Below are positions 1 to 9,669 of a stretch of DNA of 9,669 nucleotides, in pieces. A program made the position numbers and the translations under genes. How positions within the stretch are numbered: position 1 is the first letter of the stretch; each line of letters opens with the position of its first letter. Location of the stretch: the IMG/VR virus record IMGVR_UViG_2671180254_000012; one strand, written 5' to 3'. The notes beneath the pieces were generated by a model. That model did no database searches. It was given only the letters and a program-made list of their open reading frames with translations, and was not told where the DNA came from. This DNA comes from a virus (taxonomy: Duplodnaviria > Heunggongvirae > Uroviricota > Caudoviricetes).

Positions 1-90
1 GAACAGGAGGGACAGCTGATAGAAACAGAAGCCACTGGAGCACCTCAAAAACACCATCATACACTAAATCAGTAAGTTGGCAGCATCACC
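1..90. other. Sequence matching, from memory, the p15A (ColE1-type) plasmid replicon flank as carried in pACYC184, ending exactly where pACYC184 joins p15A to the Tn9 cat fragment
   Basis: Reverse complement of 1-90 reads GGTGATGCTGCCAACTTACTGATTTAGTGTATGATGGTGTTTTTGAGGTGCTCCAGTGGCTTCTGTTTCTATCAGCTGTCCCTCCTGTTC, which I recall as the p15A segment adjacent to the origin in pACYC-type vectors. Recall only, no search run. Confidence 0.4.
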
Positions 91-242
91 CCGCCACAGA
101 ACAATTATTGCTTTTGCCGTTGATGACAATAAAGTTTTTATCGCAGGCGTATACCACGGTGGGCAAATCTATGAAACCGATTTTTTATCCAGTGCACCGT
201 AAAACCCCCATCCTTCAGGGCGTGGCGGATATCAAACTTTGG

Positions 243-1325
243 TCATTTTCTCTGGCTGATCTTTACCGGATAACCATCCCGAAGATCAATTAAGTGCTCC
301 GGTTCAGAAGCAAACCATGCATAAGATCCCCACGCCAATTCTGGTATTGCCTTTTTAAAAGGCAGAGCACTTCTGTCCATAAATGCCGTAAGGAATGCAA
401 GATTTTTCTCGCTGAACCCAGCGTCAATAGCCAAATGAGTGAGAGTAACTTTTCGTTCCCTGTTTATAGGCCCATCTGTCGCAACTACTTCAGTGAAAAC
501 TACAAGCATGTCCGAACCCGTTCGGTCCTCTCCCAAATCAATCAAAATAATATCTGGAAGTGCTTTTGAGGCATCAATATTCAGCCCCAATGCTTTTGCC
601 AATACATCATCCTGAGCAACAACTTTATTCCCGGATTCAGACAACCAGAGCACAGTTGGATTCTTAAGAAAATTAGGAGCAAAAACTTCGATGACGGCCT
701 TAGCTATTGTACTTGACGGGCCCGGAGCTAAAGTTCTCTTCTCTCCATTTGGGAAAGTGACGACTACGGCATCAGCAGCAATCACTGCCCCTGATTTCAA
801 TAAACGCAACCTAGCAAGAGCGGCTTTGTTCAAATGATTTTCTTGCCAGGAACTTATTGCACTCAGCAGCGAATCTCCTTCAAGCCCGGCATCAAAGAGT
901 GCTGCAAAAGAGCGATTCAAACTGTAACGAGGACGAGAGGATGTGGTGGGTATACCTTTACGCTCAACAATTGCATTGCAAGGTATTAGGCCATTTTTTA
1001 TAGTTTCATCACGTATTGGCTCACGCGTATTTTCCGCATACCATGCATCAGCAGGCCTTATCTTTTGTTTAGAGAAAGTCATCTTTACCCAGCTTTCTCT
1101 GGACGCATCATCAGTAAGAGCAGCCTGCGAATCTCCCATACTTACAACCTGGCTGGGCCTTATCCATCGCCCCAGCCCCTCAACCGCACCAGCATAAAAC
1201 ATGACAAAAATTGTTTTTGCAGCTATTTCCCGAATTAAATATCCACGATTCTCAGTCCCTTCAGGGAAAATTAATTGTAATCTTTCCCGGATAACATTCA
1301 ATGGGGGAACAACAGGCAGATTCAT
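243..1325 (-). CDS. Type II restriction endonuclease, BsuBI/PstI family
   Basis: 360-aa ORF immediately downstream of and ATGA-overlapping (1322-1325) an N6-adenine methyltransferase gene; the protein resembles the BsuBI/PstI endonuclease family by overall recognition. Not verified by search. Confidence 0.65.
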   Translation of the reverse strand: MNLPVVPPLNVIRERLQLIFPEGTENRGYLIREIAAKTIFVMFYAGAVEGLGRWIRPSQVVSMGDSQAALTDDASRESWVKMTFSKQKIRPADAWYAENTREPIRDETIKNGLIPCNAIVERKGIPTTSSRPRYSLNRSFAALFDAGLEGDSLLSAISSWQENHLNKAALARLRLLKSGAVIAADAVVVTFPNGEKRTLAPGPSSTIAKAVIEVFAPNFLKNPTVLWLSESGNKVVAQDDVLAKALGLNIDASKALPDIILIDLGEDRTGSDMLVVFTEVVATDGPINRERKVTLTHLAIDAGFSEKNLAFLTAFMDRSALPFKKAIPELAWGSYAWFASEPEHLIDLRDGYPVKISQRK

Positions 1326-2796
1326 GCAATCATCACTCCATAGAAACCAGCGATAGTTCTCTCAATAATCCGTCTGTGGACGCCAGCATCAATTAACGAT
1401 TGAATCTCCATCACCTGCTCCAGAGAAGGCAACGGGATTGAATTCAATTCATAGGCCGAAACAGCAACACTTCCGCTTATACACCTGAACGCCCGATCGA
1501 CAACATGCGAATTAAGTAGCATATCAATAACATCAGGGCGAACCGCAGAGAACAATCCGTTTGAATATACAATATTAATATGGTTTTCAACTACTACGCC
1601 ACCAGTTTCATCTATAAATCCCTGAGGTAAAATTGCCGCTAAAATCCTTCTGTCCTGTTCCTTCGATGTTGTCCGCTGAACAAGCACACATTCAGATTTT
1701 GTCACAAGGAAACCCTGTTGTGGGGTTATATCGATATAGGGAACATGATTTTTTCTGTCTGCACTAAAACGAAAACCAGCTGAAGTTATTGATTCCGCCC
1801 AGACTAATGGGTAGCTATTTTTTCCTTTCGTCGTACGCAACTGCGACTTAAATCGATTCCAGACTAACTGACCTGTAGAGACTGAGTATCCCAGATCAGC
1901 TAAACGCGTAGACATCTGTTTTAATACATTAAGAAAACAGGCATCATCTTTAACGCGTGGCAAAAGCCACGTTGCTCCACCTTTTTCTATATCAACATTA
2001 CCTATTTTCTCAATTTTTGCTTTGTTCAACCCCTTAGGGACAAGTGAGGATACCTGGGCCCGAACTTTATGTTCTCCCGCCTTGAATGCTGTCAACATTG
2101 TTTCCTGGAGAACATCGTCAAAGACCCCATCCCTGTCAGTGACGAAATCAAGGGCATACGGAGTAGTTTTTTCGGTCAAAAGGGTTCGCAGCGCGGTGAA
2201 ATACTGCCCACCAAGAAAAGAAGTTGGCGTAAGAAATGCAATAACTCCTGTTTTCTCTTTAACCATGCGAACAGCTAAGTCGGTGAACAATCCATATAGA
2301 TTTGCATGACCAAATAACGAACGAGAATATTTTTCTCTCGTTTTAATATCGAGAGTGACACGTCCGTAAGGCGGATTCCCTACCACAAGATCATAACCAG
2401 AAAATTTATCTTGCTGAAGCGCATCAGCAACAATAATTGTATCTTCAGGCAATCTACGTTTTACCTTTACACATAGTGGCATTAGTACAGATTCGAGCAA
2501 TACCAAACTCATCCAAGCCGCAAATGGATCGATCTCTATCCCCTTTAAACGACGACTGATTCTCCTCAACATCCATTCAGGGGAAGACCCCTTGTCTTTT
2601 TTTAACATTCGAATGGCTACTGGTGCCAAAAATGCACCGCCACCACACGCAGGATCAATAACCGATGCATGAGAAAAATCAACACCAGACTTTTCAGCCA
2701 GGTCCAAGAGACGCGCTACCAAAGGTGGGGGGGTATAGTAAGCCCCCAATTCCGAACGGTAAGCGGATGGCAGCATTACCGTATAAATTGACCCAA
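1322..2796 (-). CDS. N6-adenine DNA methyltransferase, gamma-class (PstI/BsuBI-type M subunit); 5' end lies in the N-run
   Basis: Translation contains GAYYTPPP (motif X), DPACGGGAFL (SAM-binding motif I) and VVGNPPYGR (catalytic motif IV, NPPY) in the gamma-class order. Stop TGA at 1322-1324 overlaps the endonuclease ATG. The N-terminus is hidden by the gap at 2797-3058. Confidence 0.8.
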
Positions 2797-3058
2797 NNNN
2801 NNNNNNNNNNNNNNNNNNNNNNNNNNNNNNNNNNNNNNNNNNNNNNNNNNNNNNNNNNNNNNNNNNNNNNNNNNNNNNNNNNNNNNNNNNNNNNNNNNNN
2901 NNNNNNNNNNNNNNNNNNNNNNNNNNNNNNNNNNNNNNNNNNNNNNNNNNNNNNNNNNNNNNNNNNNNNNNNNNNNNNNNNNNNNNNNNNNNNNNNNNNN
3001 NNNNNNNNNNNNNNNNNNNNNNNNNNNNNNNNNNNNNNNNNNNNNNNNNNNNNNNNNN
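2797..3058. other. Run of N (262 nt), assembly gap or masked segment
   Basis: Directly visible in the sequence. Confidence 0.95.
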
Positions 3059-3140
3059 TGGCCATGGCTTTACAAGTTTGATATCTTTCCAGATTAGAAA
3101 ACTCATTATCTGTAAAAAAATCAAAATGTTGCACATTCAT
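3059..3140 (-). CDS. 5' part of a small ORF of unknown function upstream of the methyltransferase (3' end in gap); could instead be the methyltransferase N-terminus
   Basis: ATG at 3140 (minus) giving MNVQHFDFFTDNEFSNLERYQTCKAMA before the N-run; weak AGGA upstream. Alternative starts at 3176 and 3136. Frame continuity across the gap cannot be established. Confidence 0.3.
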
Positions 3141-3390
3141 AATGTAAAATCCTAATGTATCAAACATGCGGGCCATAACATCTCATGGTGGCGCATAGCA
3201 AACTGGCCCGAAGAATATCACGCACCAAGTCGATCTCATAACCCGTTATGACAATAAATCTTTGTAGCTGAACTCACTTGGTGATTTGTCAATCATTCCT
3301 GGCCTCCAGTTCGTCCTGAATCTCTTTATCGAGTTCACCGTATTTGTTAGTCCTCATCACTCACGACTTGACTTCCAGAAATAACCTTGA

Positions 3391-3747
3391 TTATTCGGGG
3401 CTATATTTTGTCACCCTGCGTATCCGCGCTTTCGCATTACGCTCAATCTGGATTAGCTTTTCTATATTTTTTCGCCTTTCCCGCTCCTCCTGGCGCAAGA
3501 GCCTTACATCATCTGCCAGTCTGGTTTCTCTTTTCGCCACAGAGAGCATCCAGTCAAATGGCTCCACAACTGCACCGCAAATTTTACAGCGGACCTGACG
3601 CTCTTTTTCGTCAACCCGGACAGAAGCGTGATGGCAATATGGTCTTTCCGATGGCTCATAAAGAAAATTAACCTGATTACGAGGGTTATCCTCTTTTACC
3701 GGAAATAAAACAATATTGCTTAACTCATCTTCTGGTTTTATTTCCAT
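3391..3747 (-). CDS. Hypothetical phage protein with putative zinc ribbon (C-H-H...C-x-x-C) and a charged coiled-coil tail
   Basis: ATG at 3747 preceded by strong RBS (AAAGGAGAGGAGC) on the minus strand; the longest ORF extends to a GTG at 3804. Translation MEIKPEDELSNIVLFPV...CHHASVRVDEKERQVRCKICG...RRKNIEKLIQIERNAKARIRR. Confidence 0.5.
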   Translation of the reverse strand: MEIKPEDELSNIVLFPVKEDNPRNQVNFLYEPSERPYCHHASVRVDEKERQVRCKICGAVVEPFDWMLSVAKRETRLADDVRLLRQEERERRKNIEKLIQIERNAKARIRRVTKYSPE

Positions 3748-3804
3748 GCTCCTCTCCTTTGATGCGAATGCCAGCGGTAATTGAAGCCTGATAGCTAATT
3801 TCAC

Positions 3805-4227
3805 TCACAGTACCGCCTCCTGAAAATCACCCTGATAGAAAGCCGGTACACGCTGCATAACTTCACTCTTCCGGCACTCGCGACAGATTATGTTCTGATG
3901 TCTGTCGTAGCGGCGTATTTCTCCGTCCGGTAATGACCAGATAAGGTCCGGATCAACCACAGATGGTTTCTTCAGCTTTGCCCTCGAGAGTTTTTTGCGG
4001 GCGTTTTGCCAGTCCTTACGAGCCTGTTCAGACGGGAATAACCCGTAGCCAGAGTTGTATACATCCCCACTGGCAACCAGCTCTCTGGCGAGAACGCTTA
4101 TTAAATATCTTGTCGCCCCGGTTTTAGCTTCCAGTTGTCGTAACGTCTCGCGCCCACTCTGGCGTACGAGTTCAACAACCTGCCCCTTAATTTTTTCCCG
4201 CTCTTCCTGTGTAAATACTTTTGCCAT
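3805..4227 (-). CDS. Hypothetical phage protein with a predicted HTH segment
   Basis: ATG at 4227 with G-rich RBS; the longest ORF begins at a TTG at 4242. HTH-like stretch GRETLRQLEAKTGATRYLISVLARELVASG. Co-oriented with and tightly packed behind the replication genes. Confidence 0.5.
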   Translation of the reverse strand: MAKVFTQEEREKIKGQVVELVRQSGRETLRQLEAKTGATRYLISVLARELVASGDVYNSGYGLFPSEQARKDWQNARKKLSRAKLKKPSVVDPDLIWSLPDGEIRRYDRHQNIICRECRKSEVMQRVPAFYQGDFQEAVL

Positions 4228-4242
4228 AAGCGCCCCCGGCAA

Positions 4243-4968
4243 TCACTTTTCCGACACAATACGACCGGAGGAATCGACAATCTGTCGAACAATATCCCGG
4301 TGCTTGTTCAGCTCCCGCAACGCGGCGCAGACACGCTCCCACTTCTGGACATGACTTTTCGCCCGACGCAGTTCGCGGTTTGCCATATGCAGCGATGGTA
4401 AAACCAGGTCATCCGCTTGCGTTTCGGTGAACGATGGCAACGACTGCACAATGTCCGCCACAGTTTCTGTTTTAATTTCTTCCTGTGTTGCAGCTTCCTG
4501 TACCGGTAACGCAACACCTGCTGGCTGAGGAAAGACTTTACCATCCGTTTCCGCTATGGATGCGGCTTTCGGCTCTGCCGGTAAATCAGCGCCCGGTATG
4601 CAGTACCGAAATTTACCGCCCTGATTCACGCGAATCAGACGCCCTTTGCTGATTGCCATGGCCAGCGATGAATTCGCCCGGCGGGAGGTAATCCCGAACA
4701 TCAGTGCCAGCTCATCCGCCGTTTGTGGGCCATGTTGTTCAATCGCCTCAGTCAGCATTTGCGCTGTCACTTTCGGTACCGGTGACACTGGTTCACTTTC
4801 ACCAGCCTGAATCAGCCACCACATCGAACCCTTGTTATCCGCTTCACCACGGCGCTTCAGTTTCCACAGTTCGTTGACCGCATCTTCACGGCTGATTCCA
4901 AGGCGGGACGCCACCACATGTGAAGAGGCTCTTTTCAGTGCTTTCAGTGCGTCAAATACAGTTTCCAT
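4243..4968 (-). CDS. Hypothetical phage protein with two tandem winged-helix-like domains and a C-terminal helical region
   Basis: ATG at 4968 with GGAGGA RBS 9 nt upstream (minus strand); the track start at 4986 is a TTG. Two HTH-like segments ([24 protein letters not shown] and [31 protein letters not shown]). Starts 22 nt after the DnaC-like stop. Confidence 0.55.
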
Positions 4969-4989
4969 TAAAACATCCTCCAACAAAAA

Positions 4990-5476
4990 TTACTTCACAA
5001 CTCCCGGAAAGCTGACATTTGAACGCCAGCTATCCCAGTTAAACGTCACCCACCGACAACCGTTCATGGTCATGCGGTCCATAATCCTCTCACCAAGAAG
5101 CGTGCTCATTGCGGCATGATTCAGGTTTGTTAACATCCCGACACTGCACAGTGATGCTGTCCGGCGATCAATTATCTGGTGCAATACCACCTGCTCGTTT
5201 TTCGTCTCCCGCTGAATGCCTATTTCATCCAGGACCAGCAAATCAACCCCGCAAAGCTCCTGTAAAAATTTTTCACCGGATTTGCCGTTGTCGTAGCTGT
5301 CATGCAACACGCTCATGACATCAGACTCGGTGACGATAATCACGCTGCGCCCCTTCGCCATCAGCCGGTTACCCATCGCCGCTGCAAGGTGATTTTTCCC
5401 GGTGCCGGTTTTACCGCTGAACACAAAATTCGTGCACCCGGTCATCAGTTCGTCAGCTATGGATTTGGCCTGGCTC
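4990..5476 (-). CDS. DnaC-like AAA+ helicase loader (phage replication protein), N-terminus in gap
   Basis: Walker A FSGKTGTGKNHLAAAMG and Walker B-like LLVLDEIG; the frame stays open upstream of the ATG at 5445 to the N-run edge (SQAKSIADEL...), so the true start is hidden. Confidence 0.75.
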
Positions 5477-5726
5477 NNNNNNNNNNNNNNNNNNNNNNNN
5501 NNNNNNNNNNNNNNNNNNNNNNNNNNNNNNNNNNNNNNNNNNNNNNNNNNNNNNNNNNNNNNNNNNNNNNNNNNNNNNNNNNNNNNNNNNNNNNNNNNNN
5601 NNNNNNNNNNNNNNNNNNNNNNNNNNNNNNNNNNNNNNNNNNNNNNNNNNNNNNNNNNNNNNNNNNNNNNNNNNNNNNNNNNNNNNNNNNNNNNNNNNNN
5701 NNNNNNNNNNNNNNNNNNNNNNNNNN
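5477..5726. other. Run of N (250 nt), assembly gap or masked segment
   Basis: Directly visible in the sequence. Confidence 0.95.
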
Positions 5727-6640
5727 TTCACACAACGCTGGTTGTTCGTGCCGCTTACCGGGAGCAACCAGGGGTTTTCAAAATTCCGGTCCGGCCCAAA
5801 AAACGTCGTCGCTCGCTGAACAAATTCCGTTCCCGCTTTCCCGGTCGCCGCCAGGTATCTCGCGTAACGCCTCACACCATCCAGCATGGTCTCTGGTGGC
5901 ACCCCCTCGCGCAATCTGGCCTTCCAGGCACTGAATGCGGATTTCTTCGGGTTTGCCCCGGCACGCAACGGGTATTCCCGCCAGACCTGTTCGAACACAT
6001 CCGGATAATCCACTCGTCCCACAGGCTGCCCGGTGTTTTCCGGGGCTACCCGATCGGCTTCCCGCTGAATGGCGGAATCGGCTTCAGGCTGCTGCAGTTG
6101 GAGTGATTGCTCCGGCCTTGCGGTCATCACCTGCTGCACAGCGCCCGAATCGGCTTTCAGCGCATACGCTGAATCGGCTTCCGGTGTCGAGCCTGCTGGC
6201 TGACCAGGATTGACGGTCTGAACATCCCCTGCCTGGTTCGTGGCGTTTTTTACGCCATGGACCATAGTGTTTTGATCTTCTTTATCTGTATCTTTATCTG
6301 TATCTGTCGTGACTCGTCGTGACATGTGCGTGACATTTCGTGACGCGCCGTGACAATCGCCATTTTGTTCCCGCTTTCTTTCCCTCTCTCGCTGCGCCCT
6401 CTTGCGCTCTGCAGGAGATTTTGCGGTTTGCGAAATATTGCCGTTGTCCTCTTTAAGCACCTGGCGTTTTTCCCATCCAGTGATTAAATCACCATCAAGT
6501 ACCCGCCCCTGCATCGTCTGCAAAATTGAATCAATTACCTCTTCTGTCACGTCGAGCGCACTTGCCAAATCTTCTGTCGTGACATCAATGTGACCTCGCG
6601 TGACATTTCGTGACGCGCTCACCAGGAGGTGGATATACAC
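5727..6640 (-). CDS. Phage replication initiator (O-like / YdaU-like replisome organiser), both ends in gaps
   Basis: Open frame between two N-runs; N-terminal DNA-binding-like region, low-complexity acidic linker (TDTDKDTDKED, PEADSA repeats) and conserved C-terminal region (DYPDVFEQVWREYPLRAGANPKK...TTFFGPDRNFENPW). Sits between YdaT-like and DnaC-like genes as in Rac-type replication modules. Contains iteron-like DNA repeats. Confidence 0.6.
6053..6181. repeat. Four copies of (GA)ATCGGCTT(C/T) in the initiator linker-coding region
   Basis: Copies beginning at 6053, 6077, 6149 and 6173 (spacings 24, 72, 24 bp); they encode the EADS/KADS peptide repeats of the initiator. Confidence 0.45.
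6281..6354. repeat. Iteron-like array: two tandem 12-mers (TTTATCTGTATC) followed by five helically phased CGTGAC repeats; candidate replication origin
   Basis: 12-mers at 6281-6292 and 6293-6304; CGTGAC at 6308, 6318, 6329, 6339 and 6349 (spacings 10, 11, 10, 10 bp); AT-rich tract immediately adjacent (about 6265-6305). Confidence 0.45.
6579..6618. repeat. Second phased GTGAC array; includes an exact 21-bp copy of a segment of the first array
   Basis: GTGAC at 6579, 6590, 6600 and 6610 (spacings 11, 10, 10 bp); GCGTGACATTTCGTGACGCGC at 6598-6618 is identical to 6328-6348. Confidence 0.45.
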
Positions 6641-6895
6641 NNNNNNNNNNNNNNNNNNNNNNNNNNNNNNNNNNNNNNNNNNNNNNNNNNNNNNNNNNNN
6701 NNNNNNNNNNNNNNNNNNNNNNNNNNNNNNNNNNNNNNNNNNNNNNNNNNNNNNNNNNNNNNNNNNNNNNNNNNNNNNNNNNNNNNNNNNNNNNNNNNNN
6801 NNNNNNNNNNNNNNNNNNNNNNNNNNNNNNNNNNNNNNNNNNNNNNNNNNNNNNNNNNNNNNNNNNNNNNNNNNNNNNNNNNNNNNNNNNNNNNN
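6641..6895. other. Run of N (255 nt), assembly gap or masked segment
   Basis: Directly visible in the sequence. Confidence 0.95.
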
Positions 6896-7249
6896 GACAA
6901 AATCATCAGCGTCTCTCACCAGTCGTTCATGCGTCTCCACCAGTTCCCGAAAATAAGCTGAACTGTGGCTGCGCATTCGAGCCACCAGCGGAGGTGGCAT
7001 TGCCCTTTCGATCGCAGGTAACAACGCCTGAATTTTTTCAACAGCGTCAGGGGTGTCTTTATCCAGCCAACGGAAAATCTTTTGGGTGTTGAGATAAAGC
7101 GTGTTGTGCTTGCTGTCGTTATGCAGAACCGGAAACGTCATTCCCAGTTCGAAATAAACCCTGGTTATTTCAGCTGCCGGAACTTTTTCACCGTCCGGAT
7201 GCGCCCAGGCTTTCATCGCCATGCGGATGTGTTCATGCTTGATTTTCAT
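6896..7249 (-). CDS. ydaT: YdaT-like protein (Rac-prophage-type, proposed CII-like regulator/toxin), C-terminus in gap
   Basis: N-terminus MKIKHEHIRMAMKAWAHPDGEKVPAAEITR... recalled as the YdaT family; ATG at 7249 overlaps the stop of the upstream HTH gene in an ATGA arrangement. Confidence 0.6.
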
Positions 7250-7509
7250 GAATCAACCCCCGCCGATGGTTGTGTGTTAGCCTGAAACTCAGCAGGCAAG
7301 CCGTCAGTTGGGTTGGGGTAGGTTTTACTGTCAATCTCATGTGGGGTCACCACCCATCCCGTTGCTTCACACCAACGTAATATTTTTTCTCCTGTAAGTT
7401 TTGCACGCCCCGTTATAACGTGGCTGACCATCCCTTGGGATGCGCCAACAATCTCAGCAAATGAACTCTGGGTTATATGAAAATGATGCAAATATTCTCC
7501 AAGATTCAT
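7246..7509 (-). CDS. Cro/YdaS-like HTH DNA-binding protein (first gene of the rightward early operon)
   Basis: ATG at 7509 with AGGGCGGA RBS; HTH segment SSFAEIVGASQGMVSHVITG; divergent from the repressor gene; stop overlaps the YdaT-like start. The longest ORF starts at a TTG at 7536. Confidence 0.6.
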   Translation of the reverse strand: MNLGEYLHHFHITQSSFAEIVGASQGMVSHVITGRAKLTGEKILRWCEATGWVVTPHEIDSKTYPNPTDGLPAEFQANTQPSAGVDS

Positions 7510-7545
7510 AATCCGCCCTATGTGATGTGTTACCAATGCATAATT

Positions 7546-7585
7546 AATAGCACTGTTATTTTTAAAAGTAAATAGTGATACTATT
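7546..7585. promoter_or_regulatory. OR-like operator region: two 15-bp inverted-repeat sites (AATAG-N5-YTATT) between the divergent repressor and cro-like genes
   Basis: AATAGTGATACTATT at 7571-7585 (6-bp arms AATAGT/ACTATT, 3-bp spacer) and the imperfect AATAGCACTGTTATT at 7546-7560, 25 bp centre to centre; on the minus strand a TTGAAA -35-like hexamer flanks the palindrome. Confidence 0.45.
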
Positions 7586-7620
7586 TCAAAGTGATTAGCA
7601 ATCTTATTAGAATTGGATGT

Positions 7621-8121
7621 ATGAAAAGAAAATCATTGTCAGACACCGACCTCAACGCCGCCAGAAGACTGAAAGAAATCTGGATGGCAAAGAAATCTCA
7701 GTTGGGATTGACTCAGGAACGTGCGGCGGAAATTATGGGGTTTTCAACACAAGGGGCGGTAAGTCACTACCTAAATGGTCAAACCCCACTAAACCTTGAG
7801 GCTGTTCTAAAGTTTGCTGGCTTACTGAAAGTTCCCCCTGAGTCAATCAGGCCAGACATGGTAGATTTGCTGCAAATTGCAAGGATGTATTGTCGAGAAC
7901 CACAGCAAGATAACATAGTCGCATTACCAGCAGACACAGAACAAACAGAGGATGAACTACCGTTTGCCGTAGAGCCGATGGAACGAGATTTAATCCATAC
8001 GTTCAGAGCTTTTCCGAAAGAAGATCAAGAACACATGCTTCAGGAGATGAAAGATAAAAAAGAATCAATGGATCGTACGGTTGCGCGGTGGTTAGCTGCA
8101 CAAAAAGGCCGTCGCGCCTAA
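7621..8121 (+). CDS. cI-like prophage repressor (RacR/PaaR2-like), HTH XRE-type N-terminal domain, no recognisable LexA-type peptidase domain
   Basis: ATG at 7621 (the track start at 7591 is a GTG); HTH LGLTQERAAEIMGFSTQGAVSHYLNG; divergent to the cro-like gene; no obvious SD, so possibly a leaderless or short-leader transcript as for lambda cI from pRM. Confidence 0.65.
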   Translation: MKRKSLSDTDLNAARRLKEIWMAKKSQLGLTQERAAEIMGFSTQGAVSHYLNGQTPLNLEAVLKFAGLLKVPPESIRPDMVDLLQIARMYCREPQQDNIVALPADTEQTEDELPFAVEPMERDLIHTFRAFPKEDQEHMLQEMKDKKESMDRTVARWLAAQKGRRA

Positions 8122-8140
8122 ATCAGAGGAGATATGTAAA

Positions 8141-8335
8141 ATGAGTACAGTCCTTTCCCCAATGGTTTCAGAATTTGAGACAGTTGAGCAAGAAAATAGT
8201 TACAACGAATGGCTGCGGGCCAAAGTAGCAGCAAGCCTCGCGGATCCCCGCCCGGCGATTCCGCATGATGAGGTAATGGCGGAAATGGAACAAATTATTG
8301 CCCAAATTGCTGCTGCAACTCACAGAGGTGAATAA
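8141..8335 (+). CDS. paaA2: PaaA2-like antitoxin (ParE-associated antitoxin)
   Basis: 64-aa ORF with AGAGGAGA RBS; sequence ...SPMVSEFETVEQENSYNEWLRAKVAASLADPRPAIPHDEV... recalled as close to E. coli O157 PaaA2; stop TAA overlaps the toxin ATG by 1 nt. Confidence 0.65.
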   Translation: MSTVLSPMVSEFETVEQENSYNEWLRAKVAASLADPRPAIPHDEVMAEMEQIIAQIAAATHRGE

Positions 8336-8625
8336 TGTTACCCGTTTTATGGCTACCATCTGCTCGTGATGATTTGCGCCAGATCGTAGCCTACATAGCT
8401 AAAGAAAATCCCGCGGCAGCACGCAGAATGAAAATTCGAATTGAAACATCCGTTTTGCCGCTCACAGAGCATCCTTACCTGTATCCTCCAAGCGAGCGAG
8501 TTCTTGGTCTTCGTGAAATTGTAACTCATCCTAACTACATCATCCTTTACCGAGTAACAGCATCAAGCATAGAAGTAGTAAATATTGTGCATTCTCGAAG
8601 ACAGTATCCAGGCAAAAACAGTTAA
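8335..8625 (+). CDS. parE2: ParE/RelE-family toxin (ParE2-like)
   Basis: 96-aa ORF MLPVLWLPSARDDL...EHPYLYPPSERVLGLREIVTHPNYIILYRV...; GAGGTG RBS; translationally coupled to the upstream antitoxin. Confidence 0.7.
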   Translation: MLPVLWLPSARDDLRQIVAYIAKENPAAARRMKIRIETSVLPLTEHPYLYPPSERVLGLREIVTHPNYIILYRVTASSIEVVNIVHSRRQYPGKNS

Positions 8626-8641
8626 TTATTCCCGCCGACAG

Positions 8642-8663
8642 AACCACCTTAGGGTGGTTTTTT
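8642..8663 (+). terminator. Rho-independent terminator candidate after the toxin gene
   Basis: AACCACC-TTAG-GGTGGTT stem-loop followed by TTTTTT, 17 nt after the parE2-like stop. Confidence 0.5.
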
Positions 8664-8681
8664 CTTGCCCCAACAAAAAAC

Positions 8682-8723
8682 AATAGCGATGCTATTTACA
8701 TCAAAAAAAATAATGATGCTATT
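8682..8723. promoter_or_regulatory. OL-like operator region: perfect 15-bp inverted repeat AATAGCGATGCTATT plus a second imperfect site
   Basis: AATAGCGATGCTATT at 8682-8696 (6-bp arms, 3-bp spacer GAT) and AATAATGATGCTATT at 8709-8723, 27 bp centre to centre; same motif family as 7546-7585; upstream of the ydaF-like gene. Confidence 0.45.
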
Positions 8724-8904
8724 GTTTCAGGCGTCAACCCACCCCGCCCCACAGAATGCAGGGCAATACTTCGAGTTACCAGACAGTGGTCAGGGGTTAA
8801 GTAGCCAGCCCGAGGCGTAAGAACATGACGGCAGGGTTCAATCTTTAACTATGCAGCAGGTTTTTTGTTCCGCCACCCCGGCGTTAAGGGGAAATGAGGT
8901 CAGC

Positions 8905-9057
8905 ATGGATACTATCGATCTTGGCAACAACGAATCTCTGGTGTGCGGCGTGTTCCCTAACCAGGATGGAACGTTTACCGCCATGACGTATACCAAAAGC
9001 AAAACGTTTAAAACCGAATCTGGCGCGCGTTGCTGGTTAGCCAGAAACACTGACTGA
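8905..9057 (+). CDS. Small YdaF-like protein (DUF1391-type, Rac prophage family)
   Basis: ATG at 8905 with GAGG RBS; MDTIDLGNNESLVCGVFPNQDGTFTAMTYTKSKTFKTESGARCWLARNTD recalled as similar to Rac YdaF; the track ORF begins earlier at 8851 without an SD. Confidence 0.5.
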   Translation: MDTIDLGNNESLVCGVFPNQDGTFTAMTYTKSKTFKTESGARCWLARNTD

Positions 9058-9068
9058 TGAGGCTGACG

Positions 9069-9434
9069 ATGGAATTTAAAGATTTACCGTCTGATGTACA
9101 GAAAACAGCAGCTCATACATTGCATTCTGTGCTGCGAGAAATCGGGAAAGATATTGCAAGCGAGCCAGCAAAAGATCTGGCCCGGAAAATCAAGACCGCT
9201 TTCGTTGAGCTTTATAATGTTGGCACTGACTCTGAAACTGTCGAGACCAAGACCGTAAGTTCACCAATATTCTCACTTGAGCCAAGCGTATTATCAGGTG
9301 AAATATGCACCGAGATTTCCAGCGAACTGCTTCCGGTAATACGAGAAGCAATTCGCCGTCGCGGTTTGGATGGAAGTTATGATCATGACGTTCTGCAAGT
9401 TCTCAGGACAATGGTGACTTCACTGGGGATTTGA
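9069..9434 (+). CDS. Hypothetical protein in the early-left operon position (121 aa)
   Basis: ATG at 9069 with GAGG 6 nt upstream; an alternative ATG at 9057 overlaps the upstream stop. No recognisable motif; not arginine-rich, so not an N-type antiterminator. Confidence 0.45.
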   Translation: MEFKDLPSDVQKTAAHTLHSVLREIGKDIASEPAKDLARKIKTAFVELYNVGTDSETVETKTVSSPIFSLEPSVLSGEICTEISSELLPVIREAIRRRGLDGSYDHDVLQVLRTMVTSLGI

Positions 9435-9669
9435 TCCCTGCGTCCTCTAAGCTTTTGATATAGCGGTCCTCCAAGAAGCGGTAAATTTTGTCGAAATCAT
9501 CTTTTCCCTCTGGTTTATTCAGAGGATTACAGGACCCGTAAGTAGCGGCATACATTTCAACCGTTTGGTAATGACTCCAACTTATTGATAGTGTTTTATG
9601 TTCAGATAATGCCCGATGACTTTGTCATGCAGCTCCACCGATTTTGAGAACGACAGCGACTTCCGTCCC

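Follow-up and report, generated by a model that had tools for sequence, protein, structure and literature searches.

Is the restriction–modification (R-M) gene pair near one end of the IMG/VR virus record IMGVR_UViG_2671180254_000012 (Caudoviricetes) the cargo of a working phage, or has it become a system of the bacterium that carries it? We analysed the whole 9,669-nt stretch (hereafter the window), for which an initial annotation, made from the letters alone, had proposed a PstI/BsuBI-family Type II R-M module at positions 243-3176, carried as cargo at the end of a prophage replication operon. Several Shigella sonnei chromosomes (e.g. CP104423 and LR213449) match the window at 100% identity. 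We regard it as highly probable that the methyltransferase gene (M) and the endonuclease gene (R) form an intact, self-contained Type IIP R-M cassette, which spreads as mobile phage cargo and is now a resident chromosomal system of S. sonnei. The coordinates of all features are collected in Table 1.

Family, fold and catalytic residues of the endonuclease

The open reading frame (ORF) of R has exactly 360 codons, in agreement with the endonuclease of roughly 360 residues first proposed. Both Pfam domains of the family were found in it, PF06616 (BsuBI_PstI_RE; E = 9e-45, 152.2 bits with a cutoff of 27, profile positions 2-152 of 154) and PF17728 (BsuBI_PstI_RE_N, winged-helix/helix-turn-helix (HTH); E = 1e-30, 106.6 bits with a cutoff of 27), which correspond to a winged-helix domain for DNA binding at the N-terminus and a PD-(D/E)XK nuclease domain at the C-terminus. 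The clade-specific PADLOC REase_II model PDLC03589 matched R at 2.8e-128, and the RefSeq name of the protein (WP_001053102.1) is 'BsuBI/PstI family type II restriction endonuclease'. SdaI (2ixs) was the sole significant PDB match by sequence (1.8e-16). An AlphaFold model of R, built from a 62-homolog alignment, had a predicted local distance difference test (pLDDT) score of 91, and a Foldseek search with this model again returned SdaI as the only significant PDB match (2ixs_A, E = 2.1e-17, probability 1.00).

In the alignment with SdaI, P257-D258 and E279 of R fall on P232-D233 and E248. E279 was invariant and P257/D258 were at least 90% conserved among 55-62 R homologs with identity down to 30%. 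The position of SdaI K251 is occupied by Ala282 in R and by Thr in the endonuclease of the EcoGIII type. Because Ala is the clade consensus and the active EcoGIII-type R also does without the Lys, its absence is not a sign of decay. Furthermore, R is full-length and identical to the copy in E. coli FDAARGOS_943. On the strength of sequence and predicted fold, R is assigned to the BsuBI/PstI Type II endonucleases, with the acidic PD...E residues of the PD-(D/E)XK core retained. Neither of the two outcomes that would speak against the initial annotation, no similarity to an endonuclease family or loss of the catalytic residues, was seen, as R is a clear family member that keeps both Asp and Glu.

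The methyltransferase and its coupling to the endonuclease

The 5' part of M is broken in the window by 262 N (2797-3058) that stand for 240 real nucleotides, and the unmasked sequence was taken from the E. coli FDAARGOS_943 locus (L001), which is 99.9% identical. Two further runs lie at 5477-5726 and 6641-6895, so that the early-right operon is partly masked as well; compared with FDAARGOS_943, the three runs take the place of 240, 315 and 245 bases of actual sequence. Since they keep neither the real length nor the reading frame, ORFs that cross them are artefacts. This applies to ORFs of 604 and 160 residues in the M region and to a '598-aa' ORF at 5453-7249 that fuses the YdaT-family gene with the replisome organizer, all of which were discarded.

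M is predicted to be a gamma-class N6-adenine DNA methyltransferase. The motifs YYTPP, DPACGGGAFL and NPPY, noted in the initial annotation, are present in this order at residues 139, 167 and 260 of the 610-residue numbering. In an alignment with M.TaqI they coincide with its motifs X, I and IV, and the target-recognition region follows C-terminal of them. The Pfam families Eco57I (1e-13) and N6_Mtase (3e-9) both scored over their cutoffs, and the PADLOC MTase_II model PDLC03338 matched at 6.7e-300. Taken together with the SdaI sequence and fold matches, the Pfam and PADLOC results for both proteins bear out a PstI/BsuBI-family R-M pair, with Pfam scores far beyond chance.

RefSeq and the initial annotation start M at ATG 3176, which indeed gives 610 residues once the masked stretch is restored. 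A functional start at ATG 3140 (598 residues) is nevertheless more likely, because M homologs that are 55-67% identical start at the counterpart of Met13, because the cassette of Kluyvera lacks 1 nt between the two candidate ATGs, so that the upstream ATG is out of frame there, and because a Shine-Dalgarno sequence, TAGGA, lies just 5' of ATG 3140.

The stop codon of M and the start codon of R share the four bases ATGA (GC-ATGA-AT), an overlap already recognised in the initial annotation, and this would couple the translation of R to that of M. In 78 of the 80 loci compared, which come from many phyla, R directly follows M. When the cassettes of S. sonnei and Kluyvera were compared, the ratio of non-synonymous to synonymous substitution rates (dN/dS) was 0.056 for each of the two genes, with dS around 1.2-1.3, which indicates strong purifying selection on both. 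The cassette (243-3176) has a guanine-cytosine (GC) content of 43.2%, compared with 51.8% for the early genes (3391-7249). It is thus more AT-rich than the replication genes, as had been judged by eye, but not uniquely so, because the immunity side (7250-9669) is also at about 45%.

Comparison with characterised systems

The EcoGIII type offers the closest comparison of those we made. Its M methylates CTGCAG, its R is reported to be biochemically active, and the methylome of its host is altered (PMC3893438). EcoGIII is carried by Stx2a prophages of E. coli O104:H4, O145:H28 and O103. Like the cassette, it has an R with both BsuBI/PstI Pfam domains, an M of the gamma class and N6-methyladenine type with a homologous recognition region, the order M then R with a 4-nt overlap (2824-2827 in the EcoGIII-type locus L083), and lambdoid prophages of Enterobacteriaceae as carriers. 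It differs in sequence (its R and M are only 26% and 25% identical to those of the cassette), in that its proteins are shorter (317 against 360 residues for R, 489 against about 600 for M), and in location, as it follows cI immediately within the immunity region, whereas the cassette of S. sonnei follows replication and Ren-like genes.

SdaI (2IXS), which recognises the 8-bp target CCTGCAGG, is more distant from R of the cassette than the EcoGIII type. It shares the two-domain layout, and its catalytic D233/E248 correspond to D258/E279; unlike R, it has a Lys (K251) where R has Ala282, and identity in the structural alignment is 21%. The orientation of the domains also differs between the R model and the SdaI crystal, with a global template modelling (TM) score of 0.40-0.45. 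Every family feature that could be tested by these comparisons was found, and the cassette falls in a larger-protein subclade of the BsuBI/PstI family.

The carrier of the cassette in S. sonnei

In S. sonnei the gene order is IS1, DUF1391 (YdfA-like), ParE, PaaA2, cI-like, cro-like, YdaT-family, replisome organizer, DnaC-like loader, DUF1627, DUF977/Ren-like, the phrog_1621 gene, M, R, a ParE remnant and IS1. Beyond IS1 lie chromosomal genes of Pfam families matching ydfI, ydfZ, ydfH, ydfG and dcp, a neighbourhood which we take to be the Qin prophage locus on the E. coli K-12 map. Q, the lysis genes and the structural genes are all gone, and IS1 stands on both sides. The window itself spans the interval from one IS1 copy to the next, as draft contigs typically do. 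The element is a defective prophage remnant of about 9.5 kb and not a functional inducible lambdoid prophage. As an IS1-bounded remnant without late genes carries it, the R-M system acts as a chromosomal one. The proposal of prophage cargo therefore held for the gene order, but the carrier here is a dead IS1-bounded fragment; for the same reason, the suggested protection of the phage's own DNA does not apply in this case.

Fuller versions of the prophage are found in E. coli. That of FDAARGOS_943 is integrated beside potC and has Q, cro and the loader annotated as frameshifted, and another E. coli locus (L089) is an apparently complete prophage with the cassette. In both, a convergent ParD-ParE pair comes next after the cassette, and then DUF968, RusA and Q. 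The ParD-ParE pair is intact in these two prophages, and the ParD partner is gone in S. sonnei. The position upstream of ParDE, DUF968, RusA and Q in intact relatives agrees with the nin-type cargo site, co-oriented with the early-right genes, that had been deduced from the window.

Cargo slot, mobility and distribution

Homology to E. coli TUM9803 (L084) ends at window position 188 and restarts at 3387. The slot of TUM9803 holds three small unrelated genes instead, one of them DUF7167, and the module is thus swappable cargo. Cassettes with R 75-89% identical were found in four other temperate-phage backbones. In Kluyvera huaxiensis, the carrier is a lambdoid prophage with lambda-P type replication and with DinI, RusA and DUF968 downstream of the cassette, and its homology to the window spans only about 249 to 3259. 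In Citrobacter sedlakii, an Ead/Ea22 gene and a RecA-like gene flank the cassette in a lambdoid prophage, and a Logan contig has it in a further lambdoid prophage. The copy of Serratia marcescens AP028506 (L100 5208-8083), with R 75% identical, belongs to a P2-like prophage, in which gpA and the portal gene enclose it. The gpA-portal interval of P2 is a known hotspot for anti-phage cargo, and the EcoT38I R-M system is carried on P2 prophages. Prophage-borne R-M systems have been documented (refs 21-28 in PMC2853133). As in the cargo hotspots of temperate phages (the lambdoid nin-region and the P2 gpA-portal 'old/tin' site), the slot holds unrelated genes in sister prophages and the cassette recurs, here in four lambdoid backbones and one P2-like backbone; unlike the phage-cargo examples, the carrier in S. 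sonnei is no longer a phage. Judged from these homology boundaries, the cassette is a mobile cargo gene set (moron) of temperate phages.

In other bacteria, members of the clade are found on plasmids (for example in Burkholderia glumae and B. pyrrocinia) or chromosomally in many Proteobacteria; the R clade has no family in PHROGs. Among 5426 complete E. coli genomes, the cassette was found in only 2. Complete genomes that carry it include E. coli FDAARGOS_943 (CP065615) and, besides the two S. sonnei chromosomes named above, S. sonnei CP032523 and CP151301. An identical R protein is indexed in 4192 blocks of an assembly collection, where its cluster consists mostly of S. sonnei records, and the cassette differs by 0-1 single-nucleotide polymorphism among eight S. 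sonnei chromosomes. An independent PADLOC survey counted 982 Type II systems among 994 S. sonnei genomes and called the species 'highly uniform' (PMC13293514). These systems are very probably the R-M cassette, which would make it near-universal in the species.

The leader of the cassette

A non-coding leader of about 120 nt precedes M and is approximately 95% identical between S. sonnei and Kluyvera, even though synonymous sites are near saturation between the two (dS about 1.2). The pattern TTGG..CG.GA.ATTCTT was invariant in 6 of 6 aligned cassettes, including the P2-like copy of Serratia, whose R is 75% identical; counterparts lie at 8089-8207 of L093 and upstream of M in L096, L098 and L100. 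Besides the TTGGTGCGTGATATTCTT block, the leader has a 14-bp palindrome, CATAACGGGTTATG, and the words ATGAGAT and GTTATG, each of which is repeated. By eye, a weak extended -10 (TGaTATTCT) with a poor -35 was also seen.

An Rfam search of the leader gave no match, and its predicted RNA fold was not significant (z = -0.9). No ORF longer than 32 residues, and hence no controller (C) gene, occurs on either strand of 3141-3390. The small ORFs of the leader were rejected as coding sequence, as 3 of 4 substitutions in them are non-synonymous and their length varies. The upstream gene of 118 residues was likewise rejected as a C-protein gene, being a phage gene that also occurs in prophages without the R-M cassette, and a sigma-54 promoter at TTGGCACGCGACATTCTT in the Serratia copy was dismissed because the -12 GC element is absent. 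The leader presumably holds the cassette's own promoter and a control site or operator. A lysogen must methylate its DNA while the early promoter PR is repressed, and this, together with a conserved leader private to the cassette, argues for expression independent of the early operon.

The recognition sequence

PstI and BsuBI recognise CTGCAG, which occurs in the window only at 6092-6097 and 6409-6414, exactly where the initial annotation had placed it. XorKII is a further PstI isoschizomer. The chance that the target of the cassette contains a CTGCAG core is, in our estimate, slightly better than even; this is favoured because the characterised members share the core and because a motif of the N-terminal domain is invariant across clades. 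The motif in question, YA.NTRE..R (R101, E102 and R105 of R), is invariant or nearly so in the clade and in the CTGCAG enzyme. In addition, M aligns with the EcoGIII-type M over 363 residues, at 25% identity, through the C-terminal target-recognition region.

To look for avoidance of the target, observed/expected ratios under a maximal-order Markov model were calculated for each of the 64 palindromic hexamers in two sets of flanking DNA, 0.2 Mb next to homologs that are at least 60% identical and 1.1 Mb next to those of about 50% identity. CTGCAG was not avoided: its ratio was 0.82 in the first set (rank 24 of 64) and 0.90 in the second (rank 54). The test has low power for recently acquired mobile systems. 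ATGCAT was mildly low in the same test (0.86 and 0.62). The literature on methylomes and PstI isoschizomers yielded no specificity for the R-M clade, and no methylome of S. sonnei or FDAARGOS_943 was found in the searchable literature.

Proposed mechanism and alternatives

An intact R-M cassette that has passed from phage cargo to the chromosome of S. sonnei would work as follows. The cassette, about 3.0 kb long, consists of the leader, M and R in this order, with no controller protein encoded. M would use S-adenosylmethionine to N6-methylate adenine in the host's copies of a short palindromic target, and R, an SdaI/PstI-like enzyme, would cut unmethylated copies on incoming DNA, probably as a dimer. 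Since M precedes R with a 4-nt ATGA overlap, R would be translated only behind M. The leader would drive constitutive expression, independent of the repressed early promoter. As mobile cargo, the cassette occupies nin-type slots of lambdoid prophages and the gpA-portal slot of a P2-like prophage. IS1 has trimmed its carrier in S. sonnei to about 9.5 kb, leaving the immunity genes, the replication genes, PaaA2-ParE and the R-M cassette. In this species the system would then be a resident Type II barrier, and probably also an addiction module that aids persistence of the fragment.

Several observations weigh against this explanation. In the S. sonnei assembly GCA_040189005.1 (L087, position 8593), one C is lost from a C7 tract (window about 2726-2732, minus strand) in the codons of YYTPPP, which leaves M frameshifted and R intact. 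This may be a homopolymer sequencing error, which is plausible because a one-base loss in a C7 run typifies long-read errors, or it may be a real slip that leaves R without M, in which case R is tolerated without M in that strain. A search of 50,697 deposited phage genomes gave no relative of R at 60% identity or above, all matches lying below. Searches around the cassette revealed neither a consensus sigma-70 site nor a terminator, and conservation of the leader is the sole ground for giving it a promoter of its own. Finally, CTGCAG is not avoided around the homologs, and the nearest characterised enzymes are remote (R 26% and M 25% identical to the EcoGIII type, 21% in the structural alignment with SdaI).

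We give a little less than an even chance to a system of the same kind in which the subclade of 360-residue R and approximately 600-residue M has a target that differs from or extends CTGCAG, as does CCTGCAGG of SdaI. The 25-26% identity to the CTGCAG pair would fit this, as would the absence of CTGCAG depletion, the extra residues (about 40 in R and about 100 in M), and the existence of separate PADLOC models, the next-best and shorter profiles being PDLC03420 (2e-28) and PDLC03227 (2e-50), which, to judge from their profile lengths, are presumably the PstI-type models. SdaI is at least one family member with a specificity other than CTGCAG, but the sites of the EcoGIII type, SdaI, PstI and BsuBI all contain CTGCAG; the YA.NTRE..R motif is common to the clade and the CTGCAG enzyme, the recognition region of M is homologous along its whole length to that of the CTGCAG methylase, and the avoidance test is weak for a recently acquired mobile system. 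If the target is indeed not CTGCAG, the two CTGCAG sites of the window are irrelevant. It is also possible, if rather doubtful, that the main selected role of the cassette in S. sonnei is addiction, that is, post-segregational killing that stabilises the remnant, instead of defence. Type II R-M systems are known addiction modules, as the work of Kobayashi has reportedly established and as PMC2853133 cites for background, and the remnant has kept the R-M cassette and an intact PaaA2-ParE with the late genes all gone, in a fragment that appears near-invariant and near-universal in a species under IS-driven genome reduction. Defence and addiction are compatible, however, and the present evidence separates neither from the other; purifying selection across species and residence in phage defence hotspots suit defence equally well.

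Two other explanations fare worse against the same evidence. An inactive R, with the locus reduced in S. sonnei to a solitary methyltransferase of epigenetic effects only, seems very improbable to us. Pseudogenes do accumulate in S. sonnei, a Lys is absent at the position of SdaI K251, and the frameshifted M beside an intact R would be tolerable only if R were inactive or silent. Yet R is full-length and the same as the E. coli copy, its dN/dS is 0.056, the catalytic Asp and Glu are kept, the absence of Lys is the clade consensus and is shared with the active EcoGIII R, and the loss of one base from a C7 run is typical of long-read error. It is unlikely, although less so, that the pair is the R-M system of an active temperate phage, expressed with the early-right operon and guarding both the lysogen and the DNA of phage progeny. 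Co-orientation with the replication genes, no terminator detected in between, and apparently complete prophages with the cassette in E. coli (L089) and in other genera are in line with such a phage. The element in the window is IS1-bounded and lacks Q, lysis and structural genes, however, and even in FDAARGOS_943 Q, cro and the loader are annotated as frameshifted; moreover, methylation is needed while PR is repressed, and the private leader points to independent expression. The explanation we retain is accordingly that of an intact cassette now resident on the chromosome. A bolder extension of it is tentative and on balance doubtful: the subclade, with a non-CTGCAG target and a conserved leader without controller, would represent an R-M type in its own right, spread by phages and now fixed as the only Type II barrier of S. 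sonnei, where it would hold the fragment by addiction together with PaaA2-ParE. If so, the cassette shapes which plasmids and phages enter the species.

Phage-borne PstI-family R-M systems are already documented by EcoGIII, and RefSeq and PADLOC annotate both genes correctly; we claim no conceptual novelty for the cassette. The points of interest are its specificity, its fixation in S. sonnei within an IS1-trimmed remnant, its hopping among phage cargo hotspots, and the conserved leader. S. sonnei is a clonal, globally spreading pathogen that acquires drug resistance via plasmids, and nearly all of its genomes appear to carry one Type II R-M system, very probably this one. Knowledge of the target would explain and predict barriers to the entry of plasmids and phages, would guide the design of transformable constructs and therapeutic phages, and would give a characterised specificity to a large and widespread branch of the PstI family. 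The cassette further illustrates, in clean form, how a defence module moves among cargo hotspots of unrelated temperate phages and outlives its carrier.

Other features of the window

Table 1 Features of the 9,669-nt window (strand given relative to the window; a dot marks features without strand).
Feature	Coordinates	Strand	Basis and remarks
IS1 terminal 90 nt, inverted repeat GGTGATGCTGCCAACTTACTG...	1..90	-	Window end; full IS1 on S. sonnei chromosomes
ParE toxin gene 3' remnant, 36 codons, convergent with R, truncated by IS1	92..202	+	Identical to the C-terminus of FDAARGOS_943 ParE
Variable cargo slot of lambdoid prophage, R-M cassette inside	189..3386	.	Homology break relative to E. coli TUM9803
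R gene, Type IIP endonuclease, BsuBI/PstI family	243..1325	-	360 aa; Pfam, PADLOC, fold match, RefSeq
ATGA overlap of M stop and R start	1322..1325	-	Read from sequence
M gene, predicted gamma-class N6-adenine DNA methyltransferase	1322..3140	-	598 aa from ATG 3140; 610 aa from ATG 3176
Conserved non-coding leader	3141..3259	-	Conservation across cassettes; TTGGTGCGTGATATTCTT block and palindrome CATAACGGGTTATG
phrog_1621 gene (PHROG family, function unassigned)	3391..3747	-	PHROGs 1e-54
DUF977 gene	3805..4242	-	Pfam DUF977 2.6e-30; phrog_142 'Ren-like exclusion protein' 2e-46
Rest of early-right operon: DUF1627, DnaC/IstB-like loader, replisome organizer, YdaT-family, cro-like HTH	4243..7509	-	Pfam; gene calls in identical S. 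sonnei loci L085-L092
cI-like repressor	7621-8121	+	HTH_3 domain
PaaA2 antitoxin (64 aa) and ParE toxin (96 aa), overlapping genes	8141-8625	+	Pfam 3e-23 and 1.8e-17
Other IS1 end, GGTAATGACTCCAACTTATTGATAG...	9567..9669	.	Second window end

Pfam detected no Peptidase_S24 self-cleavage domain in the cI-like repressor, and at the equivalent place FDAARGOS_943 and L089 encode a LexA/S24-type protein. Because of this difference, the immunity region of the remnant is possibly of another type, and its repressor may not be cleavable in the SOS response.

The PaaA2-ParE pair lies directly downstream of the cI-like repressor and is a second addiction-type module in the remnant, so that the R-M cassette and PaaA2-ParE, both of the addiction type, share about 9.5 kb of DNA. 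On the other side, the DUF977/Ren-like gene is a further candidate exclusion gene adjoining the R-M slot; this gene and the phrog_1621 gene also occur in prophages that have no R-M cassette.

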